Origin: Gemmatimonadales bacterium
GTDB lineage: Bacteria; Gemmatimonadota; Gemmatimonadetes; Gemmatimonadales; GWC2-71-9
Direction of reading: 5' to 3'
Assembly: GCA_035573235.1 (NCBI GenBank)
Contig: DATMZX010000298.1
Span: 1-39,539 of the forward strand
DNA length: 39,539 nt
The position numbers and the translations under genes are program-made. The notes beneath the pieces were generated by a model, which was not told the DNA's origin, made no database searches, and saw nothing but the letters and a program-made list of their open reading frames with translations. Positions 18,156-38,178 of the stretch are shown here, in pieces; position 1 is the first letter of the stretch, and the number at the start of each line of letters is the position of its first letter.

Positions 18156-19784
18156 GTGCCGGCGGTCCTCGGATTCATTCTCCTGCTGCAGGGCAGCGCG
18201 CCGCTGCGTGCCGGCCTGGACACCCTGTACAGCGGCGATTTCGAGCGCGCCGCGGCCTATTTCGCCGGGTTAGCCGCGCGCGACACGACCGATCCCGCCC
18301 CAGTGGTGTTTCAAGCAGGCGCCTACATCTGGTGGGCAGCGGCGCTCGATTCGTCGGAGTTCGAGCTGGCGCGCATCGATTCACTGCTCGATGTCGCGTT
18401 GCGGCGCGCGCAGCCGGCCGGCGCCGAGTTCTGGCGCGCCACCGCGCTCGGGTATCGCGCGCGCCAGCGGGAGGAGCATGGACATTCGTTCAGCGCGGCC
18501 AAAGACGCGAAAGCGATGCGCGATATCTACCGCCGGCTGCTCGCCGCGGACTCGAGCTGCGCCGACTGTTATCTCGGGCTCGGCGTCTACGACTACGGGC
18601 TCGCGCGCGCCGGCGCGCTCGCGCGGTTTTTCGCGAGGCTCATCGGACTGGGCAGCGGCGACGCCGAGCGCGGAATCCGCTACATGCGGCGCGTGGCGCA
18701 CGACGGCGATCTCGCGCGCGTGGAAGGGACCTGGGTGCTCGCCGCGGCGTTGATTCGGGAAGCCGCGCGCGACCCGAACGGCAGCGCCGTCCTGGAAGAC
18801 GAAGCGCGCGGCTACGTCGTTGGACTCGCCGCGCGCTATCCGGGAAACCCGGTCTTTCAACGTTTCTTACAAGAAGTCCCGGCTCGAACCTCAGCGCGTA
18901 AATCGGTACGAACGTCGCGACGTCCCACGCCTGCTGCGATTGCCCTGCCGGCGCCGGTCGGGCGGCGTGAGCGCGGCCAGCTTGCCCAGCATGTTGTGCA
19001 CGTGACTCTTCACCGTGTTCGTCGCGATGTTGAGCCGCTGCGCGATCTCCTTGTTGCCGAGGCCGGCCGCGATCAACTCTTTGATCTCCTGCTCGCGCTT
19101 GGTGAGACGCACCGCACCGCCGCCCGGAGTCGTCGCCGCGCTGCCGGATTCAACGGCAGCGCGTGGCGCGGCCGGTGGCGGCGGCAGATCGGTTCCGCTC
19201 GCGACGGTGCGAATCGCTTTCGCGATGTCCTCAGCCGTCGCGTCCTTCATGATGAACCCGTTCGCGCCGCCGTCGATGAACTGCGTGACGTCCTGCTGCG
19301 CCGGCACGAAGTCCATCACGATCGCCTTCGCGTCGGGAGCGGTCTGCTTCAGGCTGGACAGGAACGCGTAGCTGTCGCCGTTGGCGAGCGCGGCGTCCAG
19401 CAGCACGACCTGCGGTTTGGCGTCCTTCAGCTGCTGCGCCGCGGCGGTGGCGCTCTCGGCGCTCGCCACGATGTCGACGTCCGGATACGCGCTGAGCAGG
19501 CGCGCCAGGCCGTCACGCATCAGACGATTGTCCTCGACGACGAGGACACGAATACGCGTCGCGGGGACCGGCGCAGAAGCCGCACGACGCTCCGCCCGGC
19601 GACGGTTCAACGAACCTTCACGCTCGACTGCTCGGTTATCGATTCCGCGCCTGCGTTGGGCCGATACCCGACGCTCGACACGGCGAATGGTCCAAGGCAC
19701 ACTCCACCCCCGTTCTTGGACGTAATGTATTTTTCGGGAGGATGCAGCGGCATTACTCATGGGGATGAGGCCGCTCATGCCTAA
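18156..19784 (+). CDS. Hypothetical TPR-like protein; only the first ~245 codons look genuinely coding
   Basis: GTG lies 1 nt after the mrp stop. Codons up to about 18885 have the high GC3 and normal composition of a real gene (...GNPVFQRFLQEV). There is no in-frame stop until 19784, so the formal ORF runs codon-for-codon antisense through the response-regulator gene. The true 3' end is unresolved. Confidence 0.4.
   Translation: MPAVLGFILLLQGSAPLRAGLDTLYSGDFERAAAYFAGLAARDTTDPAPVVFQAGAYIWWAAALDSSEFELARIDSLLDVALRRAQPAGAEFWRATALGYRARQREEHGHSFSAAKDAKAMRDIYRRLLAADSSCADCYLGLGVYDYGLARAGALARFFARLIGLGSGDAERGIRYMRRVAHDGDLARVEGTWVLAAALIREAARDPNGSAVLEDEARGYVVGLAARYPGNPVFQRFLQEVPARTSARKSVRTSRRPTPAAIALPAPVGRRERGQLAQHVVHVTLHRVRRDVEPLRDLLVAEAGRDQLFDLLLALGETHRTAARSRRRAAGFNGSAWRGRWRRQIGSARDGANRFRDVLSRRVLHDEPVRAAVDELRDVLLRRHEVHHDRLRVGSGLLQAGQERVAVAVGERGVQQHDLRFGVLQLLRRGGGALGARHDVDVRIRAEQARQAVTHQTIVLDDEDTNTRRGDRRRSRTTLRPATVQRTFTLDCSVIDSAPALGRYPTLDTANGPRHTPPPFLDVMYFSGGCSGITHGDEAAHA
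18891..19610 (-). CDS. NarL/FixJ-family response regulator (receiver + LuxR-type HTH)
   Basis: Receiver domain: RIRVLVVEDN, VVLLDAAL, GFIMKDAT. HTH: LTKREQEIKELIAAGLGNKEIAQRLNIATNTVKSHVHNMLGKL. The start is uncertain. I chose TTG 19610 (GAAGG 4 nt upstream). Alternatives are GTG 19700 and ATG 19760, but codons upstream of 19610 have low GC3. The last ~25 codons are Arg-rich and atypical for this family. Confidence 0.8.
   Translation of the reverse strand: MNRRRAERRAASAPVPATRIRVLVVEDNRLMRDGLARLLSAYPDVDIVASAESATAAAQQLKDAKPQVVLLDAALANGDSYAFLSSLKQTAPDAKAIVMDFVPAQQDVTQFIDGGANGFIMKDATAEDIAKAIRTVASGTDLPPPPAAPRAAVESGSAATTPGGGAVRLTKREQEIKELIAAGLGNKEIAQRLNIATNTVKSHVHNMLGKLAALTPPDRRRQGNRSRRGTSRRSYRFTR
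19611..19776. promoter_or_regulatory. Probable divergent promoter/leader region between the response regulator and the MASE1-GGDEF gene
   Basis: It contains one of the most AT-rich stretches in the window (GTAATGTATTTTTCGGG). It has short inverted repeats TCCAAG(19691-19696)/CTTGGA(19715-19720) and GTAATG(19722-19727)/CATTAC(19751-19756). No -10/-35 assignment was attempted. Confidence 0.35.
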
Positions 19785-21183
19785 TCCCCCATTCAGCTTA
19801 GGCCGGATGAGCCAATCATTACGCCGCATCCTCGTCCTGTTCGGCCTCGCAATCATTTATTACCTCGCGGCGCGCCTCGGGCTGCGATTCGCATACGTCA
19901 ACAGTTCGGTCACGACGATTTGGCCGCCGGCCGGAATCGCGCTCGCCGCCTTTGTGTTGCTCGGGTACCGCGTCTGGCCCGCGATTCTGCTCGCCGCATT
20001 TCTCGCGAACTACATGACGGCCGGTGTCGTCGTTCCATCGCTGGGGATCGCGGTCGGGAACACACTCGAGGGCTTGCTCGCGGCGTATCTCGTCAACCGG
20101 TTCGCGCGCGGCGGGCGCGTGTTCGATCGCGTGCGCGACATCTTCCGGTTCACGCTGTTCGCGGCGCTCGCCAGCACGACCGTCTCGGCGTCGATCGGCG
20201 TCGCCGCGCTGGTGCTCGGCGGGCTCTCGTCCTGGCACGAGGCGCCGCGCGTGTGGCTCACCTGGTGGCTCGGCGATGCCGTCGGCGACATCGTCATCGC
20301 GCCGGCGCTCATCATCTGGGTCGGCGTGCGGCCGGTGCCGGCGTGGACCCGCGCGCAGCTCATCGAAGGGCTCGTCCTGTTGTTCGTGACGATCGGGGTG
20401 GCGTACGCCCTGTTCGGCGGTGTCTTTCCGACGAAGCATTACCCGCTCACGGTGCTGCTCTGGCCCGTGATGATCTGGGTGGCGTTCCGGTTCGGCCCGC
20501 GCGAAGCGGCCACGGTGATGGTGGTGATTTCCGCGATCGCGATCGCGCGCACGCTCGCGGGCGTGGGCCCGTTCTCGGTCTACGCGCGGAATGAATCGCT
20601 GGTGCTGCTCCAGGTCTGGACCGGCATCACCGCCGTCACGAGTCTGGTGCTGGCCGCGGTCGTCGCGGCGCAGCGCGACATTCAGGGCACGTGGCGCGAG
20701 CTCGCGGTGACGGATCCGCTCACGGGACTGGCGAATCACCGCCAGCTCATCAATGCGCTCGAGTCCGAAATCCGCCGCTCGCGGCGCACGGCGCAGCCCC
20801 TCGCCGTGGTGCTCCTCGACCTCGACGGTCTCAAGCAGATCAACGACCGCCACGGGCATCTCGCGGGCAGTCTCGCCATTCGCCGGGTGGCCGAGGCGCT
20901 GCTGGGATCTTGTCGCGCCACCGACACCGCCGCGCGCTTCGGCGGCGATGAATTCGCGCTGGTGCTCCCGGAAACGGGGGAAGCGGCCGCCTGGCATGTC
21001 GCGCGCGGCGTCGTGGACCGGCTGGCCACCGACGCCGAGAAGCCGAACCTGTCGATCAGTGTTGGGGTAGCAGTGTACCCTGGTCACGGTGAGACAGTGG
21101 AGGCATTGCTGAACGCAGCCGATGTTGCGCTCTACGAGACCAAGGAACGCCGCAAGACGCGGTCTGCAGGTCTTGCTCCCTAA
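19777..21183 (+). CDS. MASE1-domain membrane diguanylate cyclase (GGDEF)
   Basis: MASE1-like N-terminal ~300 aa (SVTTIWPPAGIALAAFVLLGYRVWP, multiple helices) followed by GGDEF (LLDLDGLKQINDRHGHLAGS, RFGGDEFALVL). Candidate starts are 19759, 19777 (GAGG 6 nt upstream) and 19807. Confidence 0.85.
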   Translation: MPNPPFSLGRMSQSLRRILVLFGLAIIYYLAARLGLRFAYVNSSVTTIWPPAGIALAAFVLLGYRVWPAILLAAFLANYMTAGVVVPSLGIAVGNTLEGLLAAYLVNRFARGGRVFDRVRDIFRFTLFAALASTTVSASIGVAALVLGGLSSWHEAPRVWLTWWLGDAVGDIVIAPALIIWVGVRPVPAWTRAQLIEGLVLLFVTIGVAYALFGGVFPTKHYPLTVLLWPVMIWVAFRFGPREAATVMVVISAIAIARTLAGVGPFSVYARNESLVLLQVWTGITAVTSLVLAAVVAAQRDIQGTWRELAVTDPLTGLANHRQLINALESEIRRSRRTAQPLAVVLLDLDGLKQINDRHGHLAGSLAIRRVAEALLGSCRATDTAARFGGDEFALVLPETGEAAAWHVARGVVDRLATDAEKPNLSISVGVAVYPGHGETVEALLNAADVALYETKERRKTRSAGLAP

Positions 21184-23619: not shown

Positions 23620-24903
23620 GTGCTGCGGCTCGCGGCACCCGCGGTCGCCATGATCGCGTGCAGTTTCTCGTTCAACCTGATCGATACGATCTGGGTCGGC
23701 CGGCTGATCGGACCGGCGGCGCTCGCCGCGGTCTCGACCGCCGGCTTCTACGTCTGGGTCGCGTTGAGCCTTGGTGAGATGGTGGAGATCGGATTGACGG
23801 CGGTGGCTGCCCGCCGCCACGGCGAAGGGGCGCCGGAGCGCGCTGCGCAGGCGGCGGCGGCGTCGGTGGTCTTCGCCCTGGGCTTGGGATTCATCGTCGC
23901 CGTGGCCGGGCTGCTCGTGGTCGATCCCATGCTGCGCCTGATGGCGGTGCCCGCCGATGTCGCGGTGCTCGGGCACGAGTATCTCTCGACGTGGCTGCTG
24001 GGCTGCCCGCTCGTGTTCGGCTTCTTTGCGATGGAAGCGACTTTCCGGGCCGCGGGCGACACGCGCACGCCGTTCCTCATGCTCGCGGGCTCGGTGGGGG
24101 TGTCGATCGCGCTCGACCCGCTGCTCATCGTCGGCGTCGGCCCGTTCCCGCGACTCGGCGTCGAAGGCGCCGCACTCGCCTCGGTCATGGTGCGCAGCGG
24201 CGGGTTTCTGCTCGGTTTGGGTCTGGCGCTGCGTCGCCGGCTGCTGCGGTTCAGCGCACCGGATTGGCGCGCGGTTCCGGTCGTCGTCCGCATCGGCATG
24301 CCGCTCGCGCTCGCGGGCGTGCTGCTCTCGGTCATCTACATGTGGCTGACGCGCTTTACGTCGCGCTTCGGGACGCCGGCGCTCGCCGCGCTGGGCATCG
24401 GACATAAGATGGAAGGGCTGGGATTCGTCGCGATCAGCGGCTTCTCGCTCGCGGCGAGCGCGCTGGTCGGGCAAAACCTCGGCGCGCGTCAGGAGGACCG
24501 GGCCCGGGAAGCCGTTCGATTGACCGTGCTCTATTGCCTCCTAGTGACGGCCACGACGGCCCTCGCGTTCCTGGTGATTCCCGAGCGTCTCGTTGCGCTG
24601 TTCACGGCCGACCCCGACGTCATCCGGGACGGGGTGTTGTACCTTCGCGTCATTGCGTTCGCGCAGATCGGCCAGAGCTTCGAGCTGATTCTCGAGGGCG
24701 CGCTCGCGGGGGCGGGCTACACGTTCTGGCCGCAGATCGTCAGCACGTCGCTCACCGGCCTGCGCATCCCGCTCGCGGCGTGGTGGTCGCGGGCATTCGG
24801 ATTGCTCGGCATCTGGGTGGCGCTGAGCGCGACGGCGATCGCGCGGGGCGTGGCGATGATCCTGTTCTGGAGAAGCGGCCGCTGGAGGACCGCGAAGGTC
24901 TGA
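23620..24903 (+). CDS. MATE-family efflux transporter
   Basis: 427 aa with 12 hydrophobic helices. It starts LRLAAPAVAMIACSFSFNLIDTIWVGRL, as in MATE/NorM proteins. The true start may lie slightly upstream (in-frame CTG codons). Confidence 0.85.
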   Translation: MLRLAAPAVAMIACSFSFNLIDTIWVGRLIGPAALAAVSTAGFYVWVALSLGEMVEIGLTAVAARRHGEGAPERAAQAAAASVVFALGLGFIVAVAGLLVVDPMLRLMAVPADVAVLGHEYLSTWLLGCPLVFGFFAMEATFRAAGDTRTPFLMLAGSVGVSIALDPLLIVGVGPFPRLGVEGAALASVMVRSGGFLLGLGLALRRRLLRFSAPDWRAVPVVVRIGMPLALAGVLLSVIYMWLTRFTSRFGTPALAALGIGHKMEGLGFVAISGFSLAASALVGQNLGARQEDRAREAVRLTVLYCLLVTATTALAFLVIPERLVALFTADPDVIRDGVLYLRVIAFAQIGQSFELILEGALAGAGYTFWPQIVSTSLTGLRIPLAAWWSRAFGLLGIWVALSATAIARGVAMILFWRSGRWRTAKV

Positions 24904-25640
24904 TGATCATCACGCTGCTCACCGATTTCGGCACGTCCGACAGCTACGTCGCAGAAGTGAAGGCGGTGCTGCTGTCCGCTGCCGCGAACGTCACGCTGGT
25001 CGATGTCAGTCACCTGGTGGCGCCCGGCGATATTCGCGCGGGTCAGTACTTGCTCAGCCGCACCTGGAAACATTTTCCGCGAGGGACCGTCCACGTCGCC
25101 ATCGTCGATCCGGGCGTGGGCACCGCGCGGCGCGCGCTCGTCGCGGAGTACGACGGTCATCGCTTCGTCGCGCCCGACAACGGGGTGCTTTCGTTCTTGC
25201 CGAAGGATGCGCGCTACGCATCGCTCCCGGTCGCGCCGTCCGCGGCGGCGACGTTTCACGGGCGCGACGTGTTCGCCCCCGCCGCGGCGCGCCTCGCGAC
25301 CGGCGCGGCGCTCGACGAGCTCGGCGAGCGCATCACCGATCCCTGCTACATGCCGCTGCCCGCGGCACGACACGATCACCTCACCGTCATCGGCGAGGTG
25401 ATCTACGTGGATCGATTCGGGACGCTCGTCACCAACATTCCAGGCGACGCGGTGCAGCCCGGCGCGCGCATTCGCATCGAGGATTCCGAGGCCGGCTCGT
25501 TGCGACGGACGTTTCGCGACGTGGCGCGGGGCGCGCTGGTGGCGTTCGTCGGGTCAGGTGGTACGGTGGAGATCGCCGTGCGAGACGGCAGTGCGGCGAG
25601 GACGCTGGGAGCGGGGGTGGGAGCGGAGGTTAGGGCGTAA
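24903..25640 (+). CDS. SAM hydrolase / S-adenosyl-L-methionine hydroxide adenosyltransferase family (DUF62)
   Basis: 245 aa from an ATG that overlaps the MATE stop (TGATG). It has ITLLTDFGTSDSYVAEVK, VAIVDPGVGTARR, APDNGVL and FHGRDVFAP blocks. Confidence 0.85.
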   Translation: MIITLLTDFGTSDSYVAEVKAVLLSAAANVTLVDVSHLVAPGDIRAGQYLLSRTWKHFPRGTVHVAIVDPGVGTARRALVAEYDGHRFVAPDNGVLSFLPKDARYASLPVAPSAAATFHGRDVFAPAAARLATGAALDELGERITDPCYMPLPAARHDHLTVIGEVIYVDRFGTLVTNIPGDAVQPGARIRIEDSEAGSLRRTFRDVARGALVAFVGSGGTVEIAVRDGSAARTLGAGVGAEVRA

Positions 25641-27256: not shown

Positions 27257-28711
27257 CCTGCGCGAGTTTCTCGAAGCGATCGACAAGAAGGACGAGCTCG
27301 TCCGCATCGATCGCGCGGTGTCGATCGACAAGGAAATCACCGAAATCGCCGACCGTTGCATGAAGTCACCGGGCGGCGGGCCGGCGTTGTTGTTCCAGAA
27401 GCCCGTGCTGCGCGGCGGCGCGGCCGCGCGGTATCCCGTCGCCGTGAACCTGTTCGGCTCGGAGCGGCGCATGGCGCTCGCGCTGGGCGTCGATTGTCTC
27501 GACGACATCGCCGCGCGGATCAGCGAGCTCGTCGCGCTGAAAGTGCCGGAAGGGTTGATCGGCAAGCTCGCGATGCTGCCACGGCTCGCCGAAGTCGCCA
27601 AGTTCCCGCCGAAAACCGTCGGGCGTGCCGCGTGCCAGGAGACGGTCCTCAAGGATGCCGACGTCGACCTCACGCAGCTGCCGGCGCCGATCTGCTGGCC
27701 CGAAGACGGCGGGCCCTACATCACGCTCGGCGGCGTCATTACGAAGAATCCGGAGTCTGGAGTCCGAAACGTCGGCATGTACCGCGTGCAGCTGCTCGGC
27801 AAGAACGAGCTCGCGATGCACTGGCAGCGGCACAAGGTGGGCGCGGCGCACTGGCGCACGATGGCGGAGCGCGGCGAGACGATGCCGGTCGCGATCGCGC
27901 TCGGCGGTGATCCCGCGAGCATCTACTCGGCGTCGGCGCCGCTGCCGCCCACGATCGACGAATTCCTGTTCGCGGGATTCCTGCGCGGCGCGCCCGTGCG
28001 CCTCGCGAAAGCGGTGACCTCGGATCTCGAGGTGCCGGCGGAAGCCGACTTCGTCATCGAAGGCTACATCGACCCGCGCGACGAGCTGGTGCTCGAAGGC
28101 CCGTTCGGCGATCACACCGGCTTCTACTCGCTCGCCGACTACTATCCGAAAGTGCACGTCACCGCCGTGACGATGCGCGACAATCCCGTGTGGCCGCACA
28201 CGATCGTCGGGCGTCCACCGATGGAAGACTATTACCTCGGCCATGCGACCGAGCGGATCTTCCTGCCGCTGCTGCGGCTGACGATTCCCGAGATCGTGGA
28301 CCTGCACATGCCGGCCGAGGGAATCTTTCACAACCTCGTGTTCGTGAGCATCGACAAGCAGTATCCGGGGCAGGCGTACAAGGTGATGAACGGCTTGTGG
28401 GGACAGGGGCTGATGTCGCTCGCCAAGGTCATCGTCGTGGTCGACAAGGACGTGAACGTGCGCGATCCCAAGGAAGCGTGGTGGGTGGCGCTGAACCATA
28501 TCGATCCGGAGCGCGATGTGCGATTCACGATGGGGCCGATCGACGTGCTCGATCACGCGAGCCGCGCGTTCACCTACGGCTCGAAGATGGGGATCGACGG
28601 CACGCGGAAATGGAAAGAGGAAGGCTTCACCCGCGAGTGGCCGAACAAGATCGTAATGGACGATGCGACGAAAGCTCGAGTGGACGCGATGTGGCGCGAG
28701 TTGGGAATCAA

Positions 28712-28715
<4 letters not shown>
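27243..28715 (+). CDS. UbiD-family decarboxylase (menaquinone-type, SCO4490-like)
   Basis: 490 aa from ATG 27243 (MPLDNLREFLEAIDKKDELVRIDRAVS...). The UbiD layout runs throughout (GVRNVGMYRVQ, GPFGDHTGFY). It overlaps ubiE by 14 nt. Confidence 0.85.
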
Positions 28716-30301
<1,586 letters not shown>

Positions 30302-31345: not shown

Positions 31346-33466
31346 TTAAGGCGTCGGTTTCTCCTTGAATCCCGCCAGATCCAGCAGGAACGCGTACTCG
31401 AACGCCACATCCCGCCAGCGCTTGTAGCGCCCCGAAGCGCCGCTGTGGCCTGCTTCCATGTTCGTGCGCAGGATCAACCGGTTCGAATCGGTCCGCATCG
31501 CGCGCATCCGCGCGGTCCACTTCGCGGGCTCGACATACAGCACCTGCGTGTCGTATAGCCCTGCCGTGATCAGCATGTTGGGATACGCCTTCCGCTCGAC
31601 GTTGTCGTACGGTGAGTACGACAGCATGTAGCGATAGAACGTCGAATCGTGGGGGTTGCCCCACTCGTCGTACTCGCCGGTCGTCAGCGGAATCGTCGAG
31701 TCGCTCATGGTCGTGATGACATCGACATAGGGCACGCCGGCGACGACGCCTCGCCAGAGCTCGGGTCTCATGTTGACCACGGCGCCCATGAGCAGGCCGC
31801 CCGCGCTCGCGCCGCGCGCGAACAGACGGTCCGACTTGGTGTACCCACGCTTGATCAGATCATCCGCGACATCGACGAAATCGTTGAACGTGTTCTTCTT
31901 TTGGAGCTGGCGGCCGTTCTCATACCAGGCGCGGCCCATCTCCGAGCCGCCGCGAATGTGCGCGATCGCGAACACGAAGCCGCGATCGAGCAGCGACAGC
32001 CGGTCGGACGAAAAGGTGGGATCGCTGCTCGAGCCGTACGATCCGTAGCCGGTGAGCAGCAGCGGCGCGGGACGGGCCGTGCCCTTGCGATAGACGATCG
32101 ACACGGGCACACGGGCCCCATCGCGCGCGGTCGTGTAGACCCGCTCGCTGACGTAGTTCGCGGGGTCGAAGCCGCCCAGGATCGAGTCGCGCTTGAGCAG
32201 CGTCTTCTGCCTGGTCCGCATGTCGTAATCGTAGGTGGAGTTCGGCGTCGTCAGCGACGTGTAGCCGTACCGCAGCACGGGCGTGTCGAACTCACGATTG
32301 GTGCTGACGTACCCGAGGTAGGCCGGCTCGCCGAAGTCGAGGTAGTACTCGCCTTTCCCGCTCCACGGCCGGACGCGCAGCTGCACCAGCCCGTCCTTCC
32401 GCTCGGTGAGGACGAGGTAATCCTTGAAAAACTCGAAGTCCTCGAGCAGGACGTCGGCGCGGTGCGGGATCACCTCTTCCCAGTTGTTGCGCCCGGGATT
32501 GGCAACCGGCGTGCGCATCAGGCGGAAGTTCTGCGCGTGATCGTTCGACATCAGATAGAAGTAGTTGCCGAAGTGGTTCGCGTAGTACTCGTGCCCGCGC
32601 TGGCGGGGGATCAGGATCTTGAACGGCTGGTCGGGCTGGTCGGCGCGCACGTAGCTGTACTCGGTCGCCATGGTCTGCGACGACTGGATCATGATGTAGG
32701 CGCGGGATTTCGTCTTGGAGACGCCCACGTAATACGTCTCATCCTTGTCTTCATAGACCATCTGGTCGCTCGACGCCGGCATGCCGAGTTTGTGACGCCA
32801 GACCTGATAGGGGCGCACCGAGACGGTATCGGCTTTCACATAGAACAGCGTGCGGTTGTCCTCTGCCCAGGCCAGGCCCATCGCACCCGGCAGCACATCG
32901 GGCAGCAGCGTGCCGGTGCGCAGGTTTTTGAAACGGATCGACCCGACGCGCCCGCCGGTCGTGTCGGCCAAGAAAGCCAGAATATCTTGGCCCGAGCTGA
33001 CCTCCCAGTCCCGAATGATGTACGTCGCTTTGCCCTCAGCGAGCTCGTTCACATCGATCATGATTTCTTCGGGCGCGGTGGGGGAGCCCTTCTTGCGCGC
33101 GTAGATCGGATAATTCTTTCCGTCGACCAGCCGCGTGTAGTAGTAATAGCCGCCCTCGCGAAACGGCACCGACTGATCGTTCTGGAGCACGCGGCCTTTC
33201 AACTCTTCGTAGAGGCGCTCCTGCAGCGCCTCCGTGTGCGCCATGACGGCCTTCGTGTACGCGTTCTCGGCCTCGAGGTACTGGATCACCTCGGGATTGC
33301 TCCGTTCTTTGAGCCAGTAGTACTCGTCGGTGCGTGTCTTGCCGAACTCGCTGAACACCTGCGGCCGCACGGCGGCGACGGGCGGTGTGGGGGCCTGCTG
33401 CGCGGGCACGGCAACGGGCACGAGTGTGGCGAGCGCGATGCCGAGCGATCGAATACGTGCGAACAT
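31346..33466 (-). CDS. ptrB: Oligopeptidase B / prolyl oligopeptidase family S9A serine peptidase, exported
   Basis: 706 aa from the internal ATG 33466 (MFARIRSLGIALATLVPVAVPAQQ signal). It has DEYYWLKERSNPEVIQYLEAEN, GASAGGLL (nucleophile Ser) and the S9 C-terminal layout. The 106 upstream codons of the track ORF are shadow. Confidence 0.9.
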   Translation of the reverse strand: MFARIRSLGIALATLVPVAVPAQQAPTPPVAAVRPQVFSEFGKTRTDEYYWLKERSNPEVIQYLEAENAYTKAVMAHTEALQERLYEELKGRVLQNDQSVPFREGGYYYYTRLVDGKNYPIYARKKGSPTAPEEIMIDVNELAEGKATYIIRDWEVSSGQDILAFLADTTGGRVGSIRFKNLRTGTLLPDVLPGAMGLAWAEDNRTLFYVKADTVSVRPYQVWRHKLGMPASSDQMVYEDKDETYYVGVSKTKSRAYIMIQSSQTMATEYSYVRADQPDQPFKILIPRQRGHEYYANHFGNYFYLMSNDHAQNFRLMRTPVANPGRNNWEEVIPHRADVLLEDFEFFKDYLVLTERKDGLVQLRVRPWSGKGEYYLDFGEPAYLGYVSTNREFDTPVLRYGYTSLTTPNSTYDYDMRTRQKTLLKRDSILGGFDPANYVSERVYTTARDGARVPVSIVYRKGTARPAPLLLTGYGSYGSSSDPTFSSDRLSLLDRGFVFAIAHIRGGSEMGRAWYENGRQLQKKNTFNDFVDVADDLIKRGYTKSDRLFARGASAGGLLMGAVVNMRPELWRGVVAGVPYVDVITTMSDSTIPLTTGEYDEWGNPHDSTFYRYMLSYSPYDNVERKAYPNMLITAGLYDTQVLYVEPAKWTARMRAMRTDSNRLILRTNMEAGHSGASGRYKRWRDVAFEYAFLLDLAGFKEKPTP

Positions 33467-33532: not shown

Positions 33533-34132
33533 ATGTTTCGGACCGTGCCGACTTCTGACCTGCCCCTGATACTCGCGATCACCGGCGCGTCCGGCGCGCC
33601 GTATGCCGTGCGGTTGCTCGACGCGCTCGCCAGGCATCGGGTACCGACGTGGCTCCTGATTTCGACGCACGGCTGGCGCCTGCTCGCCGAGGAGTGTGGG
33701 ATCAAGGACGAAGCGGCGCTGCGCAAGGCGACCGGCGAGTGGGACTGCGTGCGGCTGTTCAACGACGCCGACCGCGGTGCGCAACCGGCATCCGGCTCGG
33801 TGAAGACGCTCGGCATGGTCGTGTGCCCGTGCTCGATGGGGACGATGGCGGCGATCGCGCAGGGCACGAGCCGCTCGTTGATCGAGCGGGCCGCCGACGT
33901 CACGCTGAAGGAGCGGCGCAAGCTCGTGCTCGTACCGCGCGAAACGCCGTTATCGCTGGTACATCTGCGCAACATGACGCTCGCCGCCGAAGCCGGCGCG
34001 GTGATTCTTCCGGCGGCGCCGGGATTCTATCAGCGCCCCAAACAGATCTCCGAGCTCGTGGATTTCATCGTACAGCGCATCGTCGACCACTTCGGACTCG
34101 AGATCAAGCTGGTCCCGTCGTGGCAGGGGTAG
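33533..34132 (+). CDS. ubiX: Flavin prenyltransferase UbiX
   Basis: LILAITGASGAPYAVRLL, VVCPCSMGTMAAIAQG and LVLVPRETPLS. I chose the ATG at 33533. The track TTG at 33500 is the alternative. Confidence 0.85.
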   Translation: MFRTVPTSDLPLILAITGASGAPYAVRLLDALARHRVPTWLLISTHGWRLLAEECGIKDEAALRKATGEWDCVRLFNDADRGAQPASGSVKTLGMVVCPCSMGTMAAIAQGTSRSLIERAADVTLKERRKLVLVPRETPLSLVHLRNMTLAAEAGAVILPAAPGFYQRPKQISELVDFIVQRIVDHFGLEIKLVPSWQG

Positions 34133-34563
34133 CCCCGCAAGCTCGTGAGCTGCTGGCGCGCGATGTCTCGCCGGAGGAGTACCGGGCGATCCGGGAGCTG
34201 TGGAAGGCGCACTCGATCGCCGAGGACAAACGCGATATTGCCGGTTTGATCGCCACGCTCACGCCCGACTGCGTGTACGAAGTGGTGGGTGAGCAGGGAG
34301 CGCGCTGGGAAGGCCATGCCGGTGCGACGCAGTTCTACCTGTCGTTGCTCGGCGCGTTTCCCGACATTCACTTTGATTTGCAGCAGATCGTCATCGGACC
34401 GCAGGGTGTGTGTGAAGAAGCAATCGTGACGGGCACGCACAAAGCCAATTGGTTGTCGCACGCGCCGAGCGGCGACAGAGTCGAGTTTCGCGTGGTGATC
34501 TTTTTCCCCTGGGATCGGAACGCGAAGAAATTCAAGGGAGAGCGCGTGTACGCCCAACTATGA
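34120..34563 (+). CDS. SnoaL-like / NTF2-fold protein (ester-cyclase-like)
   Basis: ~147 aa. There is no in-frame ATG, so GTG 34120 (a 13-nt overlap with ubiX) is the best start. IAGLIATLTPDCVYE...FPDIHFDLQQIVIGPQGV..E..VTGTH fits the SnoaL-like pattern. Confidence 0.6.
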   Translation: MAGVAPQARELLARDVSPEEYRAIRELWKAHSIAEDKRDIAGLIATLTPDCVYEVVGEQGARWEGHAGATQFYLSLLGAFPDIHFDLQQIVIGPQGVCEEAIVTGTHKANWLSHAPSGDRVEFRVVIFFPWDRNAKKFKGERVYAQL

Positions 34564-37067
34564 TCTTGCTACTGGCTTTGCTGCTCGCTCAAACGCCCGA
34601 CCCCCTTCCGCCAAAGCCCGCGCCACCGCCCGCCGCCTGGCGTCCAATCATCGGTGCCTACCTGCGTGGCAGCGACACGGTCCTCGTCTTTGAGGATGGA
34701 GGGGCGTTGTTCGCATTTGCGGACTCGCAACGTCGCGCGCTGTCAGGTCCGAATGATTCGGTGTTCAAGGCATGGAAGCGTTTGCAGCTCGGCCCCGCCA
34801 ACGGCGGGCAGCTGCGGCTGCAGCCGGTCCAGCCGGTTGTGGAGCTGCTGCACACCGATCGCCTGCTGGCGCCACCGGCCGAGAGTGGCTCGTTCAAGAC
34901 GCCCGATCTCGTGGAGGTCGTGACGCTCGATTCGAGCATCCATCTCGACATTCGTTACGCGACCACGAACAATTTTCTGGGCAGTGTCTTCTACGCCTCA
35001 CCCCACGCGTTTCTGCAGCGTCCCGCGGCCCAGGCGGTGGTGCGCGCCGCGCACGCGCTGCGCCCGCTCGGCTACGGTCTGCTGATTCACGACGCCTACC
35101 GGCCGTGGTACGTGACGAAGACGTTCTGGGACGCGACCCCGCCGGCGTCACACTGGCTCGTGGCGGATCCGGCGAGTGGGTCCAAGCACAATCGCGGCGC
35201 GGCGGTCGACATCACGCTATACGACGTGAAGACGCGCGCGCCGGTCGAGATGCCCTCGACGTACGACGAGGCGACACCGCGCGCGTACGCCGACTTTCCC
35301 GGCGGGACGTCGCTGCAGCGCTGGCATCGCGCGCTGCTGCGGGACGTACTCGTGCGGGAAGGGTTCACGCCGAATCCCAGCGAGTGGTGGCACTTCGATT
35401 TCCAGGGCTGGCAGGAGTATCCAATTCTCAACCTGGCGTTTGAGGACCTGCTGCGATCCGCGGCGCCGCAAGACACGACGCGCTACACGCACGCCGACAC
35501 GCTGCGCGGCTCGAACGGACCGGCGCGCGCGTGGTGGGATGCGCAATTCTACGATTTGCACGTGGCCCTGAATCCGCGGGACTCGAGCATCAGCGGCTGG
35601 AATCGCATCACGTATCGCGTGCTGCAATCGGGCCGCGAGATGCAGATCGATCTGCAGTCGCCGCTCACGATCGACAGCATCATGCAGAGTGGCCGCAAGC
35701 TGAAGTTCAGACGAGATGGCAACGCCTTTTTCGTCACACTCAGTGCTAAGCAGACAGCCGGCGCGTTGGCCACGCTGACCGTGGGCTATCACGGCAAGCC
35801 GAAAATCGGGAAGCTGCTGCCTTGGGATGGCGGCTTTACCTTCCAACGCGACAGCCTGGGCCGGCCCTGGATCGCGACCGCGAACGAAGGGCTCGGCGCC
35901 AGCGTGTGGTGGCCGCTGAAGGATTATCTCGCGGACGAGCCCGACAGCCAGCGCATCGCCATCACGCTGCCCGATTCGATCGTCGACGTCTCGAACGGAC
36001 ATCTCCGCAGCACGAGCCACAACCCCAACGGCACCACGACGTACGAGTGGTTCGTCGTAAACCCGATCAATAGTTACAACGTCACGATCAACGCGGGACG
36101 GTACGGCCACTTCAGCGACACGCTCGCGGGTGAAGCGGGCAAGTTGTCGCTCGACTTCTGGCCGCTCGACTATCACGTCGACACGGCGCGCGGCCAGTTC
36201 AAGCAGGTGATCACGATGCTCCAGTGCTTCGAGCACTGGTTCGGGCCGTACCCGTGGTACGCCGACGGCTACAAGCTGATCGAGACGCCGCACCTCGGCA
36301 TGGAGCATCAGAGCGCGATCGCCTACGGCAATCATTTCCTGAACGGTTATCGCGGGCGCGATCTCTCGGGCACGGGGCTCGGCCTGCAGTGGGATTTCAT
36401 CATCGTGCACGAGAGCGCGCACGAATGGTGGGGCAACAATCTCTCCGCCCAGGATCACGCCGACATGTGGGTGCACGAGAGCTTCGCCAATTACGCCGAG
36501 GGCATCTACACGGAGTGCCGGCTGGGGAAGAGCGCGGGTGCGGCGTACATGATCGGCGCGCGCCGCGGCGTGCGGAACGACCGGCCGGTGATTCCGGTGT
36601 TCGGCGTGAATGCGCAGGGCTCGGGCGACATGTATCCCAAAGGCGGGAACATGCTGCACACGATCCGCGCGATCATCGATGATGACGCGAAGTGGCGCGA
36701 CATTCTGCGCGGCCTGAACAAGACGTTCTATCATCAGACCGTGACGGGCAAACAGGTCCAGGACTACATCAGCCGAGAAGCCGGCCGCGATCTGAGCAAG
36801 GTGTTCGCGCAGTATCTCACCACCACGCGGATCCCCGTGTTCGAGTATCGCGTCCAGAACGGTGCCTTGTCGTACCGCTGGTCGAACGTGGTGGCGGGAT
36901 TCGATATGCCGCTGCGCGTGAGCATTCCTGAAATGGGAACGCGGGTGTTGCAGGTGCGGGACGCGTGGCAGACGCTCAGCGGTGTCGCGCCGCGGGGTGC
37001 CGAGCTCAGCATCGATGAAAACTTCTACGTGACTGCTCGCAACGTCGGGACCGCGGCGGCTCCTTGA
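34560..37067 (+). CDS. Secreted fusion protein: VanX/DdpX-type D-Ala-D-Ala dipeptidase (M15D) domain + M1-family zinc metallopeptidase domain
   Basis: 835 aa from an ATG that overlaps the upstream stop (ATGA). It has a signal-like MILLLALLLAQ. The VanX motifs are SKHNRGAAVD (SxHxxGxAxD) and EWWH (ExxH), around aa 113-295. The M1 motifs are GMEH (a GxMEN-like exopeptidase motif) and HESAH-X18-E (HEXXH codons at 36408-36422). Confidence 0.85.
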   Translation: MILLLALLLAQTPDPLPPKPAPPPAAWRPIIGAYLRGSDTVLVFEDGGALFAFADSQRRALSGPNDSVFKAWKRLQLGPANGGQLRLQPVQPVVELLHTDRLLAPPAESGSFKTPDLVEVVTLDSSIHLDIRYATTNNFLGSVFYASPHAFLQRPAAQAVVRAAHALRPLGYGLLIHDAYRPWYVTKTFWDATPPASHWLVADPASGSKHNRGAAVDITLYDVKTRAPVEMPSTYDEATPRAYADFPGGTSLQRWHRALLRDVLVREGFTPNPSEWWHFDFQGWQEYPILNLAFEDLLRSAAPQDTTRYTHADTLRGSNGPARAWWDAQFYDLHVALNPRDSSISGWNRITYRVLQSGREMQIDLQSPLTIDSIMQSGRKLKFRRDGNAFFVTLSAKQTAGALATLTVGYHGKPKIGKLLPWDGGFTFQRDSLGRPWIATANEGLGASVWWPLKDYLADEPDSQRIAITLPDSIVDVSNGHLRSTSHNPNGTTTYEWFVVNPINSYNVTINAGRYGHFSDTLAGEAGKLSLDFWPLDYHVDTARGQFKQVITMLQCFEHWFGPYPWYADGYKLIETPHLGMEHQSAIAYGNHFLNGYRGRDLSGTGLGLQWDFIIVHESAHEWWGNNLSAQDHADMWVHESFANYAEGIYTECRLGKSAGAAYMIGARRGVRNDRPVIPVFGVNAQGSGDMYPKGGNMLHTIRAIIDDDAKWRDILRGLNKTFYHQTVTGKQVQDYISREAGRDLSKVFAQYLTTTRIPVFEYRVQNGALSYRWSNVVAGFDMPLRVSIPEMGTRVLQVRDAWQTLSGVAPRGAELSIDENFYVTARNVGTAAAP

Positions 37068-37696
37068 AACGGCGTGACCGATTGCTCGTTGCCCTGCTCG
37101 CGTCTTCCGCGTGTGGGCATGGCACGCCCGCACCGGAGACGCCGAGACCCGCCGCGGAACGGCCTCCTCCTCCCGCGCGGTCCGTGCGGTTACCAACGCT
37201 GGATGACCTGCTGCAGCAGGATGTGACGGCCGACTCGGCCTTTCCCTGGTCCGCGAGGCGACGGCTCACCTGGAGCGATTTCCGCGCGCGGCCACCCGGC
37301 GACGGCGACGAGGTCGCGAAGACGGCGTACACGCTGTTCTACGCCTGGAAATGCCGAGGCGACGCGTTCGACTTCCGTGCCATTGCCGCGTTCCGACCCC
37401 GGCAGTCCTGGGTCAAGGCGATCGCGCTGAACGATGCCGTCCTGCGCCGCAGCACGCTGGGACATGAGCAGACCCATTTCGATCTCGCGGAGGCGCACGC
37501 GCGACGCATGCGCGGCTATTTCCGCACGCTCGCCGGCGCGTGCGGGAAAACGGACGAGGAGCTCAGGGCGCTCGCGGGCCAGCTGATTCAGGCGGAGAAA
37601 GCGGAACAGCGCCGCTACGATGCAGAGACGGACCACGGCCAGCGTTCGGAAAGGCAGGCCGCGTGGACCGATGAGGTCGCTCGGCGGCTGCAATGA
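37064..37696 (+). CDS. DUF922-like putative zinc metalloprotease, probable lipoprotein
   Basis: 210 aa. Its TTG overlaps the upstream TGA (TTGA). It has N-terminal LLVALLASSAC and an HExxH motif (GHEQTHFDL) in the position typical of DUF922. Confidence 0.65.
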   Translation: MKRRDRLLVALLASSACGHGTPAPETPRPAAERPPPPARSVRLPTLDDLLQQDVTADSAFPWSARRRLTWSDFRARPPGDGDEVAKTAYTLFYAWKCRGDAFDFRAIAAFRPRQSWVKAIALNDAVLRRSTLGHEQTHFDLAEAHARRMRGYFRTLAGACGKTDEELRALAGQLIQAEKAEQRRYDAETDHGQRSERQAAWTDEVARRLQ

Positions 37697-38178
37697 GGCT
37701 CGGCGTCATCTCGGATACGCACGGCATGCTGCGGCCGCAGGTGTTCGAGGTCTTTCGCGAAGTCGATCACATCCTGCACGGCGGCGACATCGGGGCGTGG
37801 GAGTTGATCGTCGAGCTCCAGGCGCTGGCGCCGGTCACGGCCGTGTACGGGAATACCGACGGGTTCGACATTCGTTCGCGCGTCCCTCAAGTGGCCGAGA
37901 TCGAGCTCGATGGGTTTCCGATCGTGGTGACGCATGGAGATCAGTTCGGCACTCCGAATCCCGCCAAGCTGCACGATGCATTTCCGCAGGCCGACATCAT
38001 CATTTTTGGGCATAGTCACCGCCCACTGCTCGAGCTTGTCGACAAGACGGTGACCGTGATGAATCCGGGCGGGGCGGGGGCACCCCGGTTCGGGATTCCG
38101 CCGAGTGTGGGGATTTTGGAGCTCGAGACGGGGATACCGCCGCGCGGGAGGATCGTGACGCTCGTAGCGCACCATTAG
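37693..38178 (+). CDS. YfcE/MJ0936-family metallophosphoesterase
   Basis: 161 aa with an ATGA overlap. It has ISDTHG, HGGD, GNTD and GHSH motifs in canonical order. Confidence 0.85.
   Translation: MRLGVISDTHGMLRPQVFEVFREVDHILHGGDIGAWELIVELQALAPVTAVYGNTDGFDIRSRVPQVAEIELDGFPIVVTHGDQFGTPNPAKLHDAFPQADIIIFGHSHRPLLELVDKTVTVMNPGGAGAPRFGIPPSVGILELETGIPPRGRIVTLVAHH

Follow-up and report, generated by a model that had tools for sequence, protein, structure and literature searches.

How an exported VanX/DdpX-type dipeptidase and an M1 aminopeptidase could come to be encoded by a single uninterrupted reading frame, and what such a protein would do, is the question raised by a 39,539-nucleotide stretch of DNA from a Gemmatimonadales bacterium (assembly GCA_035573235.1, contig DATMZX010000298.1), hereafter the window. 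A sequence-only reading of the window had proposed that one 835-codon open reading frame (ORF) fuses a dipeptidase of MEROPS subfamily M15D to an M1 gluzincin. The proposal is borne out: both halves score above the cut-offs of their Pfam profiles, both motif sets are intact, and SKHNRGAAVD, EWWH, GMEH and HESAH-X18-E lie where they had been located. The fusion ORF is one real gene and not a sequencing artefact. On the comparisons described below it is a lineage-restricted merger of neighbouring peptidase genes and not a new enzyme type, and we consider it probable that the product is a genuine bifunctional zinc exopeptidase, merged from operon neighbours and acting on peptides at two sites in the periplasm.

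The M15D half (the coordinates of all features are collected in the table) is recognized by Pfam Peptidase_M15 (PF01427) over residues 117-282 with E = 1.1e-24 and a score of 87.8 bits (cut-off 27), and a sequence search of the PDB matches it to VanX (1r44) with E = 3e-13. VanX 1r44 is also the top Foldseek match (E = 4e-7, target-normalised template modelling score 0.60) of an AlphaFold2 (AF2) model of the M15 module, a model of modest confidence with a predicted local distance difference test score (pLDDT) of 68. Residues H210, D217, H278, E275 and R181 align with VanX H116, D123, H184, E181 and R71 and are invariant in the window protein and the 18 aligned fusions. Y133, D178, R181, S208 and D236 align in turn with VanX Y21, D68, R71, S114 and D142, which we take to be the substrate contacts described with the VanX structure; all five are invariant in an alignment of 74 M15 sequences, R181 and S208 across the aligned fusions as well, and this invariance favours a small dipeptide pocket and a D-Ala-D-Ala-type specificity. 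Fold, Pfam family, Zn ligands, catalytic Glu, Arg and aligned contacts are thus those of VanX (E. faecium, 1r44) and DdpX (E. coli), the known members of M15D to which this half is closest. Unlike these enzymes, the window protein has a signal-like N-terminus, a pre-domain of ~90 residues and a covalently joined second peptidase, and its gene has no van or ddp operon context.

The M1 half is matched by Pfam Peptidase_M1 (PF01433) over residues 550-752 (E = 4.1e-12, 46.6 bits, cut-off 27.7) and weakly by Peptidase_M1_N (PF17900) over residues 330-506 (19.2 bits, under the cut-off of 25.8), and AF2 gives an all-beta region of mixed confidence at residues 326-533. HESAH occupies residues 617-621, with E640 exactly 18 residues past H621. 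The GXMEN motif, through which M1 enzymes bind the free N-terminus of the substrate, is present as LGMEH, in which M581 and E582 are kept, a His replaces the Asn and the Gly is shifted, a variant that is invariant in the family. In a PDB sequence search the two-domain M1 enzyme of Deinococcus (6a8z) matches residues 325-749 with E = 3e-17. This protein, M1dr of D. radiodurans (6a8z/6iff), is the best solved relative; both are short M1 proteins lacking the large helical C-terminal domain, and the HEXXH-X18-E motif, the GXMEN-equivalent Glu and the Tyr align between them at about 25% identity, by eye, over the aligned region. The window M1 differs from M1dr in having GMEH in place of ALET, an insertion of ~16 residues before HEXXH and an extra C-terminal beta domain of ~75 residues. 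M1dr is an active aminopeptidase without a C-terminal domain (PMC10000809, citing Agrawal et al. 2019). After the fusions themselves, the next-best matches to the M1 half are stand-alone M1 proteins of 541 residues, 85-88% identical to it.

Because relatives L033 and L035 carry M15 and M1 as adjacent genes with a 4-nucleotide overlap, a single indel could mimic a fusion, and a missed stop or frameshift near position 35450 might make two such genes look like one. The comparison with these relatives makes this very unlikely. The adjacent-gene M1 retains a signal peptide of ~20 residues which is absent from the window protein, and the distance from EWWH to ADTLRG is 111 nucleotides as against 161-164. 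Moreover the same in-frame junction recurs in independent material from different studies. A search of 5.8 billion proteins gave ~19 clusters of fusions carrying both Pfam domains, drawn from JGI, ENA and NCBI and 75-97% identical, comprising 18 full-length clusters (P0001-P0018) and the partial P0019 and belonging, where named, to Gemmatimonadales; P0001, which is 97% identical to the window protein, was found on three contigs. In addition, 10 species-level metagenome-assembled genomes (MAGs) of GTDB (L012-L021, all Gemmatimonadales or Gemmatimonadetes) have one uninterrupted frame across EWWH and HExxH. Public annotations of the fusion homologues name the M15 half only.

Conservation extends to the catalytic residues of both halves. 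Wherever covered, R181, S208, H210, D217, E275 and H278 of the M15D half and M581, E582, H617, E618, H621, E640 and Y692 of the M1 half are kept in the window protein and the 18 aligned fusions. Between the window and locus L005 (synonymous divergence, dS, ~1), the ratio of nonsynonymous to synonymous substitution rates (dN/dS) is 0.12 for M15D (residues 113-295) and 0.13 for M1, indicating strong purifying selection, 0.34 over residues 1-112 (signal, spacer and N-region together) and ~1 over the 8-codon linker (residues 296-303). The low values in both halves indicate that both enzymes have been maintained by selection after fusion. They bear also on the idea that one half is non-catalytic in vivo, M15D serving as a D-Ala-D-Ala or peptidoglycan recognition or targeting module for M1, or M1 as a scaffold. 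M15-fold domains are indeed widely used in cell-wall-binding and cell-wall-lytic enzymes, and this M15D module has other fusion partners, many unrelated hydrolases and TonB_C among them, as would be expected of a transferable accessory module; the dN/dS of M15D is nevertheless as low as that of M1, the Zn ligands, catalytic base and Arg are all invariant, and abundant stand-alone versions of the module argue for an autonomous enzyme, so that we regard a purely accessory half as improbable.

Comparison of related genomes shows how the fusion arose. The order of genes at the locus is strictly syntenic, UbiE-UbiD-(Amidase)-UbiA-S9 peptidase(-)-UbiX-SnoaL-X-Metallophos_2 or DUF922, and only X varies, taking the four states A to D listed in the table. 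The stand-alone genes (L006-L009, L033, L035, L001-L004) are orthologous to the halves of the fusion and have the same flanks, with M1 proteins up to 85-88% identical; but their products are not joined, each bears a signal peptide of its own, and in some loci a PepSY_TM gene lies between the two, where the window has a single polypeptide. Stand-alone M15 proteins with the same signal, Pro-rich spacer and N-region of ~90 residues are abundant in Gemmatimonadales as proteins of 295-330 residues, 65-77% identical over 92-99% of the module, and those at the locus (L006-L009, L033, L035) end in ...FEQLLK, ...FEQLLRP or ...FEQLRRQ followed by the stop. The signal peptides of stand-alone M1 proteins end in ...A(x)A/QDTT (the slash marks the cleavage site), exactly where the fusion linker ends, and QDTTRY is the mature N-terminus of these proteins, as in MIPLIAAIAVLTTA/QDTTRY and the canonical MRPLALLAALTLVAPAAARA/QDTTRY. 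The segment AAPQDTTRY, earlier taken as a short linker, therefore divides: the linker is RSAAP, while QDTTRY belongs to the mature M1 protein. RSAAP itself reads as the tail of M15 (…LLR-) followed by a remnant of the c-region of the M1 signal (-AAP).

The junction lies exactly at the M1 signal-peptidase site, so that a small deletion accounts for the loss of both the M15 stop and the M1 signal peptide. In this order the genes of an exported M15D protein of ~300 residues and an exported M1 protein of ~545 residues are neighbours in a co-directional cluster UbiX-SnoaL-M15-(PepSY_TM)-M1-Metallophos_2. In several lineages the stop codon of M15 was deleted together with the DNA between the genes and, on the M1 side, the n- and h-regions of the signal peptide. 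A complete M15 was thereby joined through a linker of 0-10 residues to mature M1 at its first residue; the fusion is explained by a short deletion starting from state D or by one of ~1.2 kb starting from state A. Among the aligned fusion clusters the linker is 0-7 residues long. Linker length was considered as a marker of independent fusions and rejected, as closest relatives differ in it (RSAAP in the window, none in P0002). Domain insertion, which loci L001-L004 with no nearby M15 had suggested, was likewise dropped given the M15-PepSY_TM-M1 and ATGA-overlap loci.

The residues left at the junction also invite the suggestion that the polypeptide is a precursor, cleaved at the remnant of the M1 signal-peptidase site (...AAP/Q) into two periplasmic enzymes, in which case fusion would affect co-export only. 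The linkers do retain c-region-like residues (AAPQ, AAAQ, GAQ, PASQ), and the linker evolves neutrally as noted above. Signal peptidase I, however, requires a membrane-embedded h-region, which the deletion removed, and some fusions have no linker at all (FEQL/QDTTRY in L019, FEAL/QDTTRY in P0002); we give cleavage only a small chance and retain the single bifunctional polypeptide as the probable product.

Fused and unfused forms are interleaved in neighbour-joining trees of both the M1 part and the M15 part, with states A and D nesting among state B. The fused state is polyphyletic, Fitch parsimony giving 6-11 changes with a mode of 8-9 over 100 bootstrap neighbour-joining trees built from 47 M1 sequences whose state is known, a count whose exact value is uncertain given the use of neighbour-joining on closely related sequences and possible recombination. 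This interleaving makes repeated fusion together with repeated loss of M15 (leading to state C) the most parsimonious history. The PepSY_TM gene (~360 residues) that lies between M15 and M1 in L006 (1785-2864), L007 (3899-4990) and L008/L009 (6921-8000) has been lost from all fused loci. PepSY domains were first suggested to regulate peptidases, and PepSY_TM may conceivably regulate or anchor the two peptidases. P0133 and L058, both close homologues of the M15 module, come from MAGs binned as Burkholderiales and Chloroflexi, on contigs of 3.1 and 2.7 kb; these are probably mis-binned Gemmatimonadales contigs rather than cases of horizontal transfer.

The breadth of the M15D family was assessed by an exhaustive HMMER search with residues 12-305 against 1.84 billion cluster representatives, which gave 5188 matches at E ≤ 1e-3; the best 150 of these (representatives of 50%-clusters) were analysed locally by hmmsearch with a hidden Markov model (HMM) of the family M1 and by jackhmmer with the PF00144 domain. 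None of the best 150 of 5188 carries an M1 domain (family M1 HMM, E ≤ 10), whereas 73 of the 150 have a beta-lactamase-type serine hydrolase (PF00144) N-terminal to M15D, and there are single cases of TonB_C, a PHB-depolymerase-type esterase and a ceramidase domain. M15D with its pre-domain is thus a portable exported cassette, often tethered to another hydrolase; M1 is seldom its partner, and only in this lineage. The PF00144-M15D proteins of metagenomes (for example P0254, P0269 and P0286) are the closest M15D relatives outside the order, at 50-60% identity; they share the pre-domain of the window protein and likewise tether M15D to an exported peptide hydrolase, but there the partner is a serine hydrolase on the N-terminal side and in the window it is a metallopeptidase on the C-terminal side. 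A literature search for the M15 plus M1 architecture returned unrelated endolysin papers only and no description of an M15D-M1 fusion, in agreement with the earlier failure to recognize the combination as a described enzyme.

The export of a VanX homologue has a precedent in PcgL of Salmonella enterica, presumably a small single-domain enzyme, unlike the window fusion. PcgL is a periplasmic D-Ala-D-Ala dipeptidase that permits growth on D-Ala-D-Ala (PMC3760250, citing Hilbert et al. 1999), so that hydrolysis of this dipeptide outside the cytoplasm is an established nutritional function. The sequence-only reading had contrasted the fusion with VanX and DdpX as small, stand-alone, cytoplasmic enzymes. 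This description holds for the classic characterized members, but not for PcgL, nor for the 73 multi-domain proteins with PF00144, nor for the abundant signal-bearing stand-alone forms of ~300 residues in Gemmatimonadales; as a departure from VanX-like enzymes the fusion was therefore overstated, and its origin as a merger of operon neighbours missed, although the architecture itself was correctly seen. As a variation on known enzymes the M15D-M1 fusion is undescribed but modest, and its mechanism holds no surprise.

The fusion protein is probably exported, judging from orthologues with canonical signal peptides. Canonical Sec signals are found in orthologous stand-alone M1 proteins and in some fusions (MRPLALLAALTLVAPAAARA/Q, MTKTSMLLLATLCCPMLAQA/Q and the N-terminus of P0013), and P0014 also has a longer canonical one. 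Short signals of 10-15 residues with an uncharged n-region are typical at the locus, being seen in the window (MILLLALLLA/Q, 34560-34592) and in P0020-P0031 (MIPLIAAIAVLTTA/Q); they apparently begin at the ATGA overlap with the SnoaL-like gene, and orthologues without this overlap have longer canonical signals. The N-region of ~90 residues that follows had been left without a type, and it has no Pfam match even at E = 10, whether in the window version, in a longer orthologue or in the equivalent segment of the beta-lactamase-M15D proteins. Within it AF2 predicts a four-stranded beta meander (residues 32-61, pLDDT 83-90). By eye, homology can be recognized with the stretch ahead of M15D in the beta-lactamase-M15D fusions (…W+P.IGEYG…v.E+.G.L…FRI.PvRPV.EL…PP.E.G.F). 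Foldseek gives weak matches to SurE/Ulm16 (E 0.2-0.5, ~70 columns), the matched region being, we assume, the lipocalin-like C-terminal domain of enzymes of the penicillin-binding-protein type. From the by-eye pattern and these Foldseek matches we would guess that the N-region is a DUF3471/lipocalin-like remnant.

Taken with the catalytic motifs, these features make it likely that the protein is a periplasmic two-site exopeptidase for the salvage of peptides or cell-wall peptides. The short M15-derived N-terminal signal would carry the whole protein across the inner membrane and place two independent Zn sites side by side in the periplasm. The M1 half (GMEH, HESAH-X18-E, Tyr692) would trim N-terminal L-residues from oligopeptides, and the M15D half would hydrolyse D-Ala-D-Ala or closely related D-residue dipeptides that an M1 enzyme cannot cleave. 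Together the two halves would convert peptides, including those derived from the cell wall, to free amino acids for uptake, and fusion would guarantee 1:1 co-export, stoichiometry and co-localisation of enzymes already functionally linked. Peptide salvage is also in keeping with two further products of the cluster, an S9 oligopeptidase that bears a signal and a DUF922 protein.

Several observations weigh against this reading. The signal-like N-terminus, real though it is, is unusually short, with ~10 residues (MILLLALLLA/Q) and no positive n-region. The NCBIfam DdpX equivalog (PRK10178, NF007557) scores 130.7 bits, under its cut-off of 176, and the VanX equivalog (NF033115) 66.1 bits, far under its cut-off of 320; with both cut-offs missed, the M15D half forms a distinct subfamily, for which D-Ala-D-Ala specificity is no more than plausible. 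The gamma-D-Glu of a peptidoglycan stem peptide would halt a classical M1 aminopeptidase, so that sequential action of the two halves on such a peptide is not obvious. The neighbouring UbiX, SnoaL and phosphoesterase genes give no clear pathway context. Finally, the AF2 models are of low confidence (pLDDT 68 for the M15 module and 60 at full length, with the M1 active-site region below 35), and the full-length model is not good enough to search for folds or to place the domains relative to each other.

The family to which the M15D half belongs raises the question of glycopeptide (vancomycin-type) resistance or self-protection, the role of VanX, which is after all its best structural match. VanX, however, acts in the cytoplasm on the precursor pool with VanH and VanA, whereas the window protein bears a signal, and 66 bits is far from the equivalog cut-off. 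By Pfam name, no Van family is represented among the annotated neighbours of the fusion in the window or of its counterparts in relatives, although no search was aimed at VanH, VanA or VanRS. Apparent export, the lack of an annotated Van-family neighbour and the low VanX score together leave such a role scarcely credible. A bolder extension of the salvage reading would make M15D and M1 an obligatory pair in a new periplasmic pathway, whose tethered sites cooperate, possibly with channelling, on D-Ala-D-Ala-terminated or D-amino-acid peptides that neither finishes alone, M15D with its pre-domain being a general ‘finishing dipeptidase’ cassette for exported hydrolases (PF00144, M1, esterases). 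Recurrent independent fusions and the persistent adjacency of M15D and M1 across Gemmatimonadales could mean such a pair, which if real would dismantle peptidoglycan fragments, necromass peptides and peptide antibiotics; we think it rather unlikely, the two-site exopeptidase for salvage remaining our preferred reading.

The fusion ORF is a single frame that opens with the ATG at 34560 and closes with the TGA at 37065-37067. Its first four nucleotides, ATGA, also contain the stop codon of the SnoaL-like gene upstream (ctATGAtc), and the recurrence of this overlap in related loci supports the start at 34560. The open frame extends over 34449-37067 (+), and TTG at 34449, the sole canonical in-frame start (ATG, GTG or TTG) upstream of 34560, would give a 115-nucleotide overlap with SnoaL. 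The antisense ORF of 659 codons that covers most of the fusion gene was not scanned against profile libraries and is read as the usual by-product of 65% G+C, not as a gene.

Features of the fusion gene and its neighbourhood in the window, and states of the locus in related genomes
Feature	Position or loci	Strand	Basis or remark
Whole fusion ORF, 835 residues plus stop	34560..37067	+	ORF list; ATGA overlap with upstream gene; full-length homologues 75-97% identical
Short hydrophobic signal-like N-terminus (MILLLALLLAQ)	34560..34592	+	Kept in fusions and stand-alone M15 proteins
Pro-rich spacer TPDPLPPKPAPPPAA	34593..34637	+	Sequence; kept as PPKPAPPP in homologues
N-region, residues 27-112: small beta-rich pre-domain plus helix, characteristic of this M15D clade	34638..34895	+	AF2; comparison by eye
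M15D (VanX/DdpX-type) Zn dipeptidase domain, residues 113-298	34896..35453	+	PF01427; DdpX model; VanX 1r44 by sequence and fold
SKHNRGAAVD motif, residues 208-217; H210 and D217 Zn ligands	35181..35210	+	Aligned to VanX SSHSRGSAID; invariant in window protein and all 18 aligned fusions
EWWH motif, residues 275-278; E275 catalytic base, H278 Zn ligand	35382..35393	+	Aligned to VanX EWWH; invariant
Junction linker RSAAP	35454..35468	+	Ends of stand-alone M15 and of M1 signal peptides
Mature M1-family metallopeptidase, residues 304-835: beta N-domain, thermolysin-like catalytic domain, small C-terminal beta domain	35469..37064	+	PF01433; weak M1_N; 6a8z
GMEH, residues 580-583, variant of GXMEN exopeptidase motif (E582)	36297..36308	+	Invariant in all 24 aligned sequences; E582 aligns with Glu of M1dr ...LALE
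HESAH-X18-E zinc/catalytic motif (H617, E618, H621, E640)	36408..36479	+	Sequence; kept in every aligned sequence covering it; P0018 gapped over HESAH
Y692, candidate M1 transition-state tyrosine	36633..36635	+	Aligned to Tyr of M1dr; invariant
Antisense ORF, 659 codons	35217..37196	-	
SnoaL-like (NTF2-fold) gene, stop overlaps fusion start	34120..34563	+	PF07366, PF12680; GTG start; conserved synteny
DUF922 gene, TTG start overlaps fusion stop (cTTGAaa)	37064..37696	+	PF06037, E 7e-10; sequence
Metallophos_2 phosphoesterase gene, conserved downstream neighbour of M1 in relatives	37693..38178	+	PF12850, E 8e-35; synteny
S9 prolyl-oligopeptidase/oligopeptidase-B-type gene, divergent, signal-like N-terminus MFARIRSLGIALATLVPVAVPAQQ	31346..33466	-	PF02897, PF00326
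Amidase gene, between UbiD and UbiA	28190..30301	+	PF01425
SAM hydroxide adenosyltransferase gene	24534..25640	+	PF01887/PF20257
MASE1-GGDEF diguanylate cyclase gene	19759..21183	+	
State A: M15, PepSY_TM (360 residues) and M1 as separate genes	L006-L009, L036		
State D: M15 and M1 overlapping by ATGA; M1 retains MTKTSMLLLATLCCPMLAQA/QDTTHY	L033, L035		
State B: fusion	window, L005, L012-L021		
State C: M1 only	L001-L004 and about 22 GTDB loci		

Around the fusion gene, the SnoaL-like gene shares 13 nucleotides with UbiX where it starts and 4 with the peptidase gene where it ends; in all related loci with an examined upstream flank it directly precedes M15, M1 or the fusion. The DUF922 gene is found downstream also in L005 and L007 and is absent from the M1-only loci L001-L004; the N-terminus of its product (MKRRDRLLVALLASSACGHG) resembles that of a signal-bearing protein or lipoprotein, and with a HEQTH motif as well the product may be another exported metallopeptidase. 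With the S9 gene, which is kept next to UbiX in all related loci, three or four genes for candidate exported peptidase-like proteins lie within about 6 kb. The Amidase gene is present at the same place in L004 and not in L001, L005 or L008, and is a variable insertion in an otherwise conserved Ubi-type cluster. The diguanylate cyclase and SAM hydroxide adenosyltransferase genes further upstream are unrelated to the fusion.

The locus presents a ‘Rosetta-stone’ case in which four stages, with the two genes separate, overlapping, fused or reduced by the loss of one, are preserved in related genomes. On genomic grounds this is strong evidence for cooperation between an exported VanX-like dipeptidase and an M1 aminopeptidase in Gemmatimonadales, soil bacteria that are abundant and little studied. 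The practical gain is modest, a testable bifunctional enzyme with no new mechanism. For the wider family, VanX-type domains emerge as commonly exported and multi-domain in environmental bacteria, which bears on the recycling of D-Ala-D-Ala and D-amino-acid peptides in soil and on the way in which ‘vanX-like’ matches are read in resistome surveys.

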